Notes under the pieces: model-generated
What the model was told of the DNA's origin: nothing
Databases searched by the model: none
Seen by the model: the letters and a program-made list of their open reading frames with translations, nothing else
Assembly: GCF_000027125.1 (NCBI RefSeq)
Contig: NC_017626.1
Strand: one strand, 5' to 3'
DNA: 64,000 nucleotides
Origin: Escherichia coli 042
Lineage (GTDB): Bacteria; Pseudomonadota; Gammaproteobacteria; Enterobacterales; Enterobacteriaceae
Part shown: one piece after another, positions 17,501-17,548 of the stretch
Layout: each line of letters begins with the position of its first letter
Position numbering within the stretch: the stretch's first letter is position 1
Made by a program: the position numbers and the translations under genes

Positions 17501-17548
17501 ATGAAACACACACCGTTTTTCTTCGCATTCTTTTTTACCTTCCCCTGA
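17501..17548 (+). CDS. pheL: pheA leader peptide
   Basis: 15-codon ORF [15 protein letters not shown], Phe-rich, upstream of pheA. Confidence 0.85.
   Translation: [15 protein letters not shown]

Follow-up and report, generated by a model that had tools for sequence, protein, structure and literature searches.

Codon 4 of the pheL leader peptide in Escherichia coli 042: a common and very probably ancestral threonine allele in an otherwise standard attenuator

The pheL-pheA locus

The pheL leader ORF lies on the plus strand at positions 17501..17548 of the window, which is the whole 64,000-nucleotide stretch of E. coli 042 DNA that was analysed. As read and translated, it is a 48-nt ORF of 15 codons and a stop (ATG AAA CAC ACA CCG TTT TTC TTC GCA TTC TTT TTT ACC TTC CCC TGA), with seven Phe codons at 17516-17524, 17528-17536 and 17540-17542. 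Codon 4 (17510..17512, plus strand) is ACA (Thr), and the C at 17511 is replaced by T in K-12, which gives ATA (Ile). The terminal codons TTC CCC TGA (17540-17548) form the UUC_CCC_UGA ending that characterizes the group-A leaders (Gurvich et al., 2011; PMC3082878). The Rfam Phe_leader model RF01859 matches 17500-17625 along its entire length (model positions 1-125 of 125), with 132.2 bits (gathering score 55) and E = 1e-24, and translation of the reverse strand of 17501-17548 yields no meaningful product. The pheL ORF is real at these coordinates, and a chance ORF is excluded.

The gene order around the leader is raiA-pheL-pheA-tyrA-aroF, with tyrA and aroF convergent downstream; the raiA-pheL-pheA arrangement is also that of the RefSeq E. 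coli annotation. The raiA coding sequence (17056-17397, from the ORF list and the annotated E. coli region) is followed on the plus strand by an intrinsic terminator at 17421..17444, found by the terminator scan and consisting of the hairpin AACGCGCC-TTCG-GGCGCGTT and a T-run, which divides raiA from the pheLA transcription unit. Directly beyond it, TTGACA at 17446..17451 (plus strand) is read as the putative -35 hexamer of the pheLA promoter and is unchanged, by alignment, in E. coli, four other Escherichia, Salmonella and Citrobacter. A simple sigma-70 scan of 17380-17700 returned no two-hexamer consensus, so the -10 element is probably non-consensus and the promoter is assigned from the conserved TTGACA. 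A likely Shine-Dalgarno sequence, AAGGA (17489..17493, plus strand), sits 7 nt 5' of the pheL ATG and is kept in every aligned species. The regulated gene pheA (chorismate mutase / prephenate dehydratase) is a 386-aa ORF at 17648..18808 on the plus strand, annotated through the identical sequence in strain 1190, and its start is separated from the pheL stop by 100 nt.

Elsewhere the window holds a complete rRNA operon (6054-11062, minus strand; 5S, 23S, tRNA-Glu and 16S, with a StyR-44 match in the spacer region) and a match to the RyfD sRNA family at 14057-14195 (minus strand), just upstream of clpB, both of which are usual in this part of the chromosome. Directly 3' of the tmRNA gene ssrA (35384-35746), the GC content falls to 33-42% over about 26 kb (approximately 36000-62000), and a 423-aa ORF starts at 35871. 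At least 80% of this block is found in only three of 5,426 complete E. coli genomes (best NZ_OZ547150.1, 99.9%), and the genomes that match it annotate an integrase, a MobQ relaxase, DotA/TraY, TraW and DUF3644. The block has the appearance of a rare integrative island at ssrA, either mobilisable or conjugative.

Structure of the attenuator

A short ORF with runs of Phe codons directly upstream of pheA is the first feature expected of the family and is present here; the second, a set of mutually exclusive 1:2, 2:3 and 3:4 helices ending in a U-run, is found by computational prediction. The segment 1:2 pause/protector helix (17515..17591, plus strand) pairs the Phe-codon region with 17570-17591, both in the Rfam structure and in the ViennaRNA minimum-energy fold. 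The 5' half of the antiterminator, UGGGAGGC (17550..17557, plus strand), is complementary to GCCUCCCA at 17598-17605, as read from the sequence. The attenuator terminator (3:4; 17595..17623, plus strand) has a 10-bp GC-rich stem, the loop AAACC and a T-run, and is recovered by Rfam, by folding and by the terminator scan. The minimum-energy fold of the complete leader combines the 1:2 helix (17515-17591) with the 3:4 terminator (17595-17619).

Ribosome positions were mimicked by masking 5' nucleotides of the leader during folding, with the same outcome for both codon-4 alleles. The terminator is predicted to stay when 15 or 28 nt are masked, the UGGGAGGC/GCCUCCCA antiterminator to form at 40 nt (ribosome stalled at the Phe codons), and the terminator to return at 50 nt (a ribosome at the stop codon). 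As a model, this series reproduces the classical logic of attenuation, with the codon-4 SNP lying outside it. When Phe-tRNA is abundant, the ribosome would reach the stop codon, the terminator would form and transcription would end before pheA. Under a shortage of Phe-tRNA, the ribosome would stall on the Phe codons, allowing the antiterminator to form and transcription to continue into pheA. Such Phe-tRNA-dependent read-through is expected in vivo by analogy, from the identity of the leader to the characterized E. coli system.

Codon-4 alleles in E. coli

The 281-bp region 17380-17660 is found in 5,425 of the 5,426 complete E. coli genomes of the reference set and is 100% identical in strain 1190. 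Eight representatives spread over the range of identities were compared by translating their annotated pheL. Codon 4 is ATA (Ile) in K-12 NCM3722 and ACA (Thr), as in the window, in strain 1190, BL21, O157:H7 Z892, WCHEC4533, ECCNB12-2 and a record labelled DH5alpha, while CE0026a combines Thr at codon 4 with a separate T13I change. Three RefSeq peptide accessions correspond to these forms: WP_001386991.1 (Thr), WP_010723158.1 (K-12 Ile) and WP_001700969.1 (T13I).

The alleles were counted with the 58-mer 17480-17537, in which the codon-4 SNP is the sole variable column seen among the compared representatives, so that an identity of at least 99% means an exact match. The ACA form is exact in 3,988 of the 5,426 genomes (73.5%) and the ATA form in 1,383 (25.5%, including MG1655, C600 and J53), these being frequencies in a sample that leans to clinical and laboratory lineages and not population frequencies. 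The remaining genomes, about 1%, carry other changes or match neither 58-mer. Thr is the majority allele, and the direction of the difference is unambiguous despite the bias of the sample.

This distribution also bears on whether the C at 17511 might be a sequencing or assembly error. Nothing specific points that way beyond the fact that it is a single-base difference from K-12; the same base recurs in thousands of independently sequenced complete genomes, and the identity with strain 1190 extends over the entire 281-bp region. An error, whose probability is vanishingly small, was rejected on the recurrence of the base.

Both alleles are already catalogued in RefSeq, and the feature itself is the known, textbook pheL-pheA attenuator, with nothing new in it. 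According to Gurvich et al. (2011; PMC3082878), the leader has one common nucleotide sequence in K-12 and S. flexneri 2a. Searching the full text of the literature for each of the two peptide strings gave no match.

Two records met in the course of these comparisons have doubtful labels. NZ_CM135829.1 (4.83 Mb), the record labelled E. coli DH5alpha, has the non-K-12 Thr form of pheL and a PheA accession that differs from that of K-12, and its label looks doubtful. An enterobacterial-type pheL is also present in CACSKA010000005.1, labelled Chryseobacterium sp. 18061 (a Bacteroidota genus), which is probably contamination or a mislabelled assembly.

Ancestral state of codon 4

A codon-degenerate pattern that left codons 3-5 free, applied with one genome per species, recovered at least 120 loci. 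Among the matches listed are four Escherichia other than E. coli, and all four have Thr at codon 4, encoded by three synonymous codons: ACT in E. albertii (leader start MKHT), ACG in both E. whittamii and Escherichia sp. E1V33 (each MKQT), and ACA in Escherichia sp. MOD1-EC7003 (MKHT). E. fergusonii is not among the matches listed. The four leaders align with the window through TTGACA, the Shine-Dalgarno sequence, pheL, the attenuator, the terminator and the pheA start codon, and this continuous alignment from promoter to pheA start indicates that they are orthologous. Since all four have Thr, Thr is very probably the ancestral residue in Escherichia and the ATA of K-12 a derived C-to-T transition.

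The opposite polarity, in which Thr is a derived, strain-specific mutation from a K-12-like Ile ancestor, is suggested at first by the usual reference, K-12, having Ile and by the weakly conserved 'aua' at codon 4 of the Rfam consensus, but it has to contend with Thr outnumbering Ile by 3,988 to 1,383 in the 5,426 genomes, with the presence of Thr in BL21 and O157:H7, and with its occurrence in all four listed outgroups through three synonymous codons. On allele frequencies and outgroup states this polarity was rejected as extremely unlikely.

The sequence-only reading of the leader had contrasted Thr in this strain with Ile in K-12, which is borne out by ACA at 17510-17512 and by ATA in NCM3722 and MG1655. 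It had further described the difference as a minor strain polymorphism. The polymorphism is real; the window, however, carries the majority and ancestral state, and it is K-12 that is derived. The same reading had named Thr in reference sequences as the finding that would count against it, and most references other than K-12 do have Thr (BL21, O157:H7 and RefSeq WP_001386991.1). K-12 cannot stand in for 'wild-type E. coli': its pheL codon 4 is the derived minority allele, and differences from this strain should be polarized against the species and its outgroups before they are called strain variants.

A rarer haplotype around the leader

Compared with most E. coli, the leader of the window has three further differences: G at 17479, C at 17608 in the terminator loop (plus strand; T in most E. 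coli), and a run of six A residues at 17633..17638 (plus strand) in the spacer between terminator and pheA, where most E. coli have A5. In K-12 the corresponding states are A at 17479, T at 17608 and an A5 spacer. The exact 60-mer 17588-17647, which includes both the C at 17608 and A6, is found in 94 of the 5,426 complete E. coli genomes. All three states are present in E. albertii, G and A6 in E. whittamii and Escherichia sp. E1V33, and A6 in Salmonella. Their presence in the outgroups points to a haplotype of ancestral type, as opposed to newly arisen mutations.

Owing to A6, the +1 frame entered by the known frameshift at CCC_UGA stops at TGA 17649-17651, which overlaps the pheA ATG (AUGA); in K-12 the +1 frame ends 53 nt into pheA. 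Such an overlap of the +1 frame with pheA has been described in Salmonella, where frameshifting is without effect on pheA expression (Gurvich et al., 2011; PMC3082878).

Other variants fall within paired segments of the leader, unlike codon 4. The T13I change of CE0026a (ACC to ATC) lies inside segment 1, BL21 and CE0026a share a T to A change at the equivalent of 17550, where the 5' half of the antiterminator starts, and the terminator's 3' arm contains G5 in BL21 in place of G6.

Codon 4 and attenuation

Codon 4 lies 5' of every attenuator helix and upstream of the regulatory Phe codons; segment 1 begins at 17515, and the Rfam consensus structure leaves model positions 1-15, codon 4 included, unpaired. 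The ACA and AUA leaders have an identical minimum-energy structure and energy (-51.7 kcal/mol, ViennaRNA). Their folds differ solely in the ensemble pairing probability of the codon-4 bases, which is 0.13 for the Ile allele and 0.015 for the Thr allele. A structural effect of the SNP on the RNA was rejected, the minimum-energy and ribosome-masked folds being the same for both alleles.

The position is equally free in evolution. Codons 3-5 show dozens of combinations over the at least 120 species of Enterobacterales, and the residues found at codon 4 are Thr, Leu, Val, Gln, Phe, Ile, Asp, Ala, Ser, His, Glu, Arg and Pro; the constancy of the 10-residue peptide core over the same loci is partly circular, as the search pattern required it. 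An independent study agrees: pheL genes of the group ending in CCC_UGA conserve the initiator, the Phe codons and UUC_CCC_UGA and vary elsewhere (Gurvich et al., 2011; PMC3082878). Constructs with only the last three wild-type pheL codons keep wild-type +1 frameshifting at CCC_UGA, with the exception of a two-fold effect of the codon-5 proline (PMC3082878). Codon 4 is thus unlikely to matter for frameshifting. Being upstream of the Phe codons and outside every alternative helix, it should also leave attenuation the same in both alleles.

The rare codon of the K-12 allele provides an argument for a functional difference. AUA is the least-used Ile codon in the long ORFs of the window (14.9% of Ile codons). 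It is decoded by a minor, low-abundance tRNA-Ile2 that carries the lysidine modification, and early translation of the leader could be slightly slower in K-12-type strains as a result. If AUA slowed the leading ribosome enough to alter its coupling to the paused RNA polymerase, the basal read-through into pheA would shift, and ACA would represent the 'normal' set-point; with codon 4 in the A site, moreover, a ribosome would extend over the first bases of segment 1 (from 17515). The thermodynamic model, in which both alleles retain the terminator when 15 or 28 nt are masked, argues against such a shift, as does the lack of constraint on codon 4 among genera, which is hard to reconcile with a tuned role. 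A literature search returned no report of a codon-4 or AUA effect on pheL attenuation. A functional role of the Thr/Ile difference is accordingly regarded as very unlikely.

As little credence is given to the speculation that the AUA of K-12 measurably changes leader kinetics and the set-point of pheA attenuation, and that, in a related way, the AUGA overlap brought by A6 allows a termination-reinitiation coupling without counterpart in the A5 majority. If it were true, decades of K-12 data on pheA attenuation would be slightly unrepresentative of the approximately three quarters of E. coli that have Thr.

No effect of Thr or Ile on attenuation is expected from the position of the SNP, the folds and the variability of codons 3-5, and the two alleles would be equivalent in vivo. 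This agrees with the sequence-only reading, which had anticipated unaffected attenuation, and which had also taken the seven Phe codons and the attenuator hairpin to be intact, as translation, the RF01859 match and the terminator scan confirm. With high probability, the window carries the standard pheL-pheA attenuator with the common, ancestral ACA (Thr), K-12 and about one quarter of sequenced E. coli have the derived ATA (Ile), and attenuation should operate alike in both. The polymorphism is real and probably neutral. Its biological weight is very small: it is a neutral-looking change near the N-terminus of a textbook leader peptide, in a part that is not under constraint.

Comparison with known systems

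The closest relative is the peptide WP_001386991.1 ('pheA operon leader peptide PheL'), the annotated form in most E. coli genomes, BL21, O157:H7 Z892 and strain 1190 among them, where the ORF and the peptide are identical to those of the window and the raiA-pheL-pheA context is also the same. The leaders of BL21 and O157 have a few differences from that of the window, all of them outside the pheL ORF. PheL of K-12 (WP_010723158.1, 'phe operon leader peptide') shares with the window its length, the seven Phe codons, UUC_CCC_UGA, the attenuator helices and the terminator stem, but differs at codon 4, which is ATA (Ile) instead of ACA (Thr).

At a greater distance, the group-A pheL genes of Enterobacteria likewise are short ORFs that carry two runs of Phe codons and end in UUC_CCC_UGA, and pause, antiterminator and terminator structures follow before pheA (Gurvich et al., 2011, NAR 39:3079; PMC3082878). 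The genera of this group differ from one another at codons 3-5, as in Salmonella diarizonae (MKLAR...), Citrobacter (MKLVP...) and Enterobacter (MKQTP...), and this is the part of the leader that is expected to vary.
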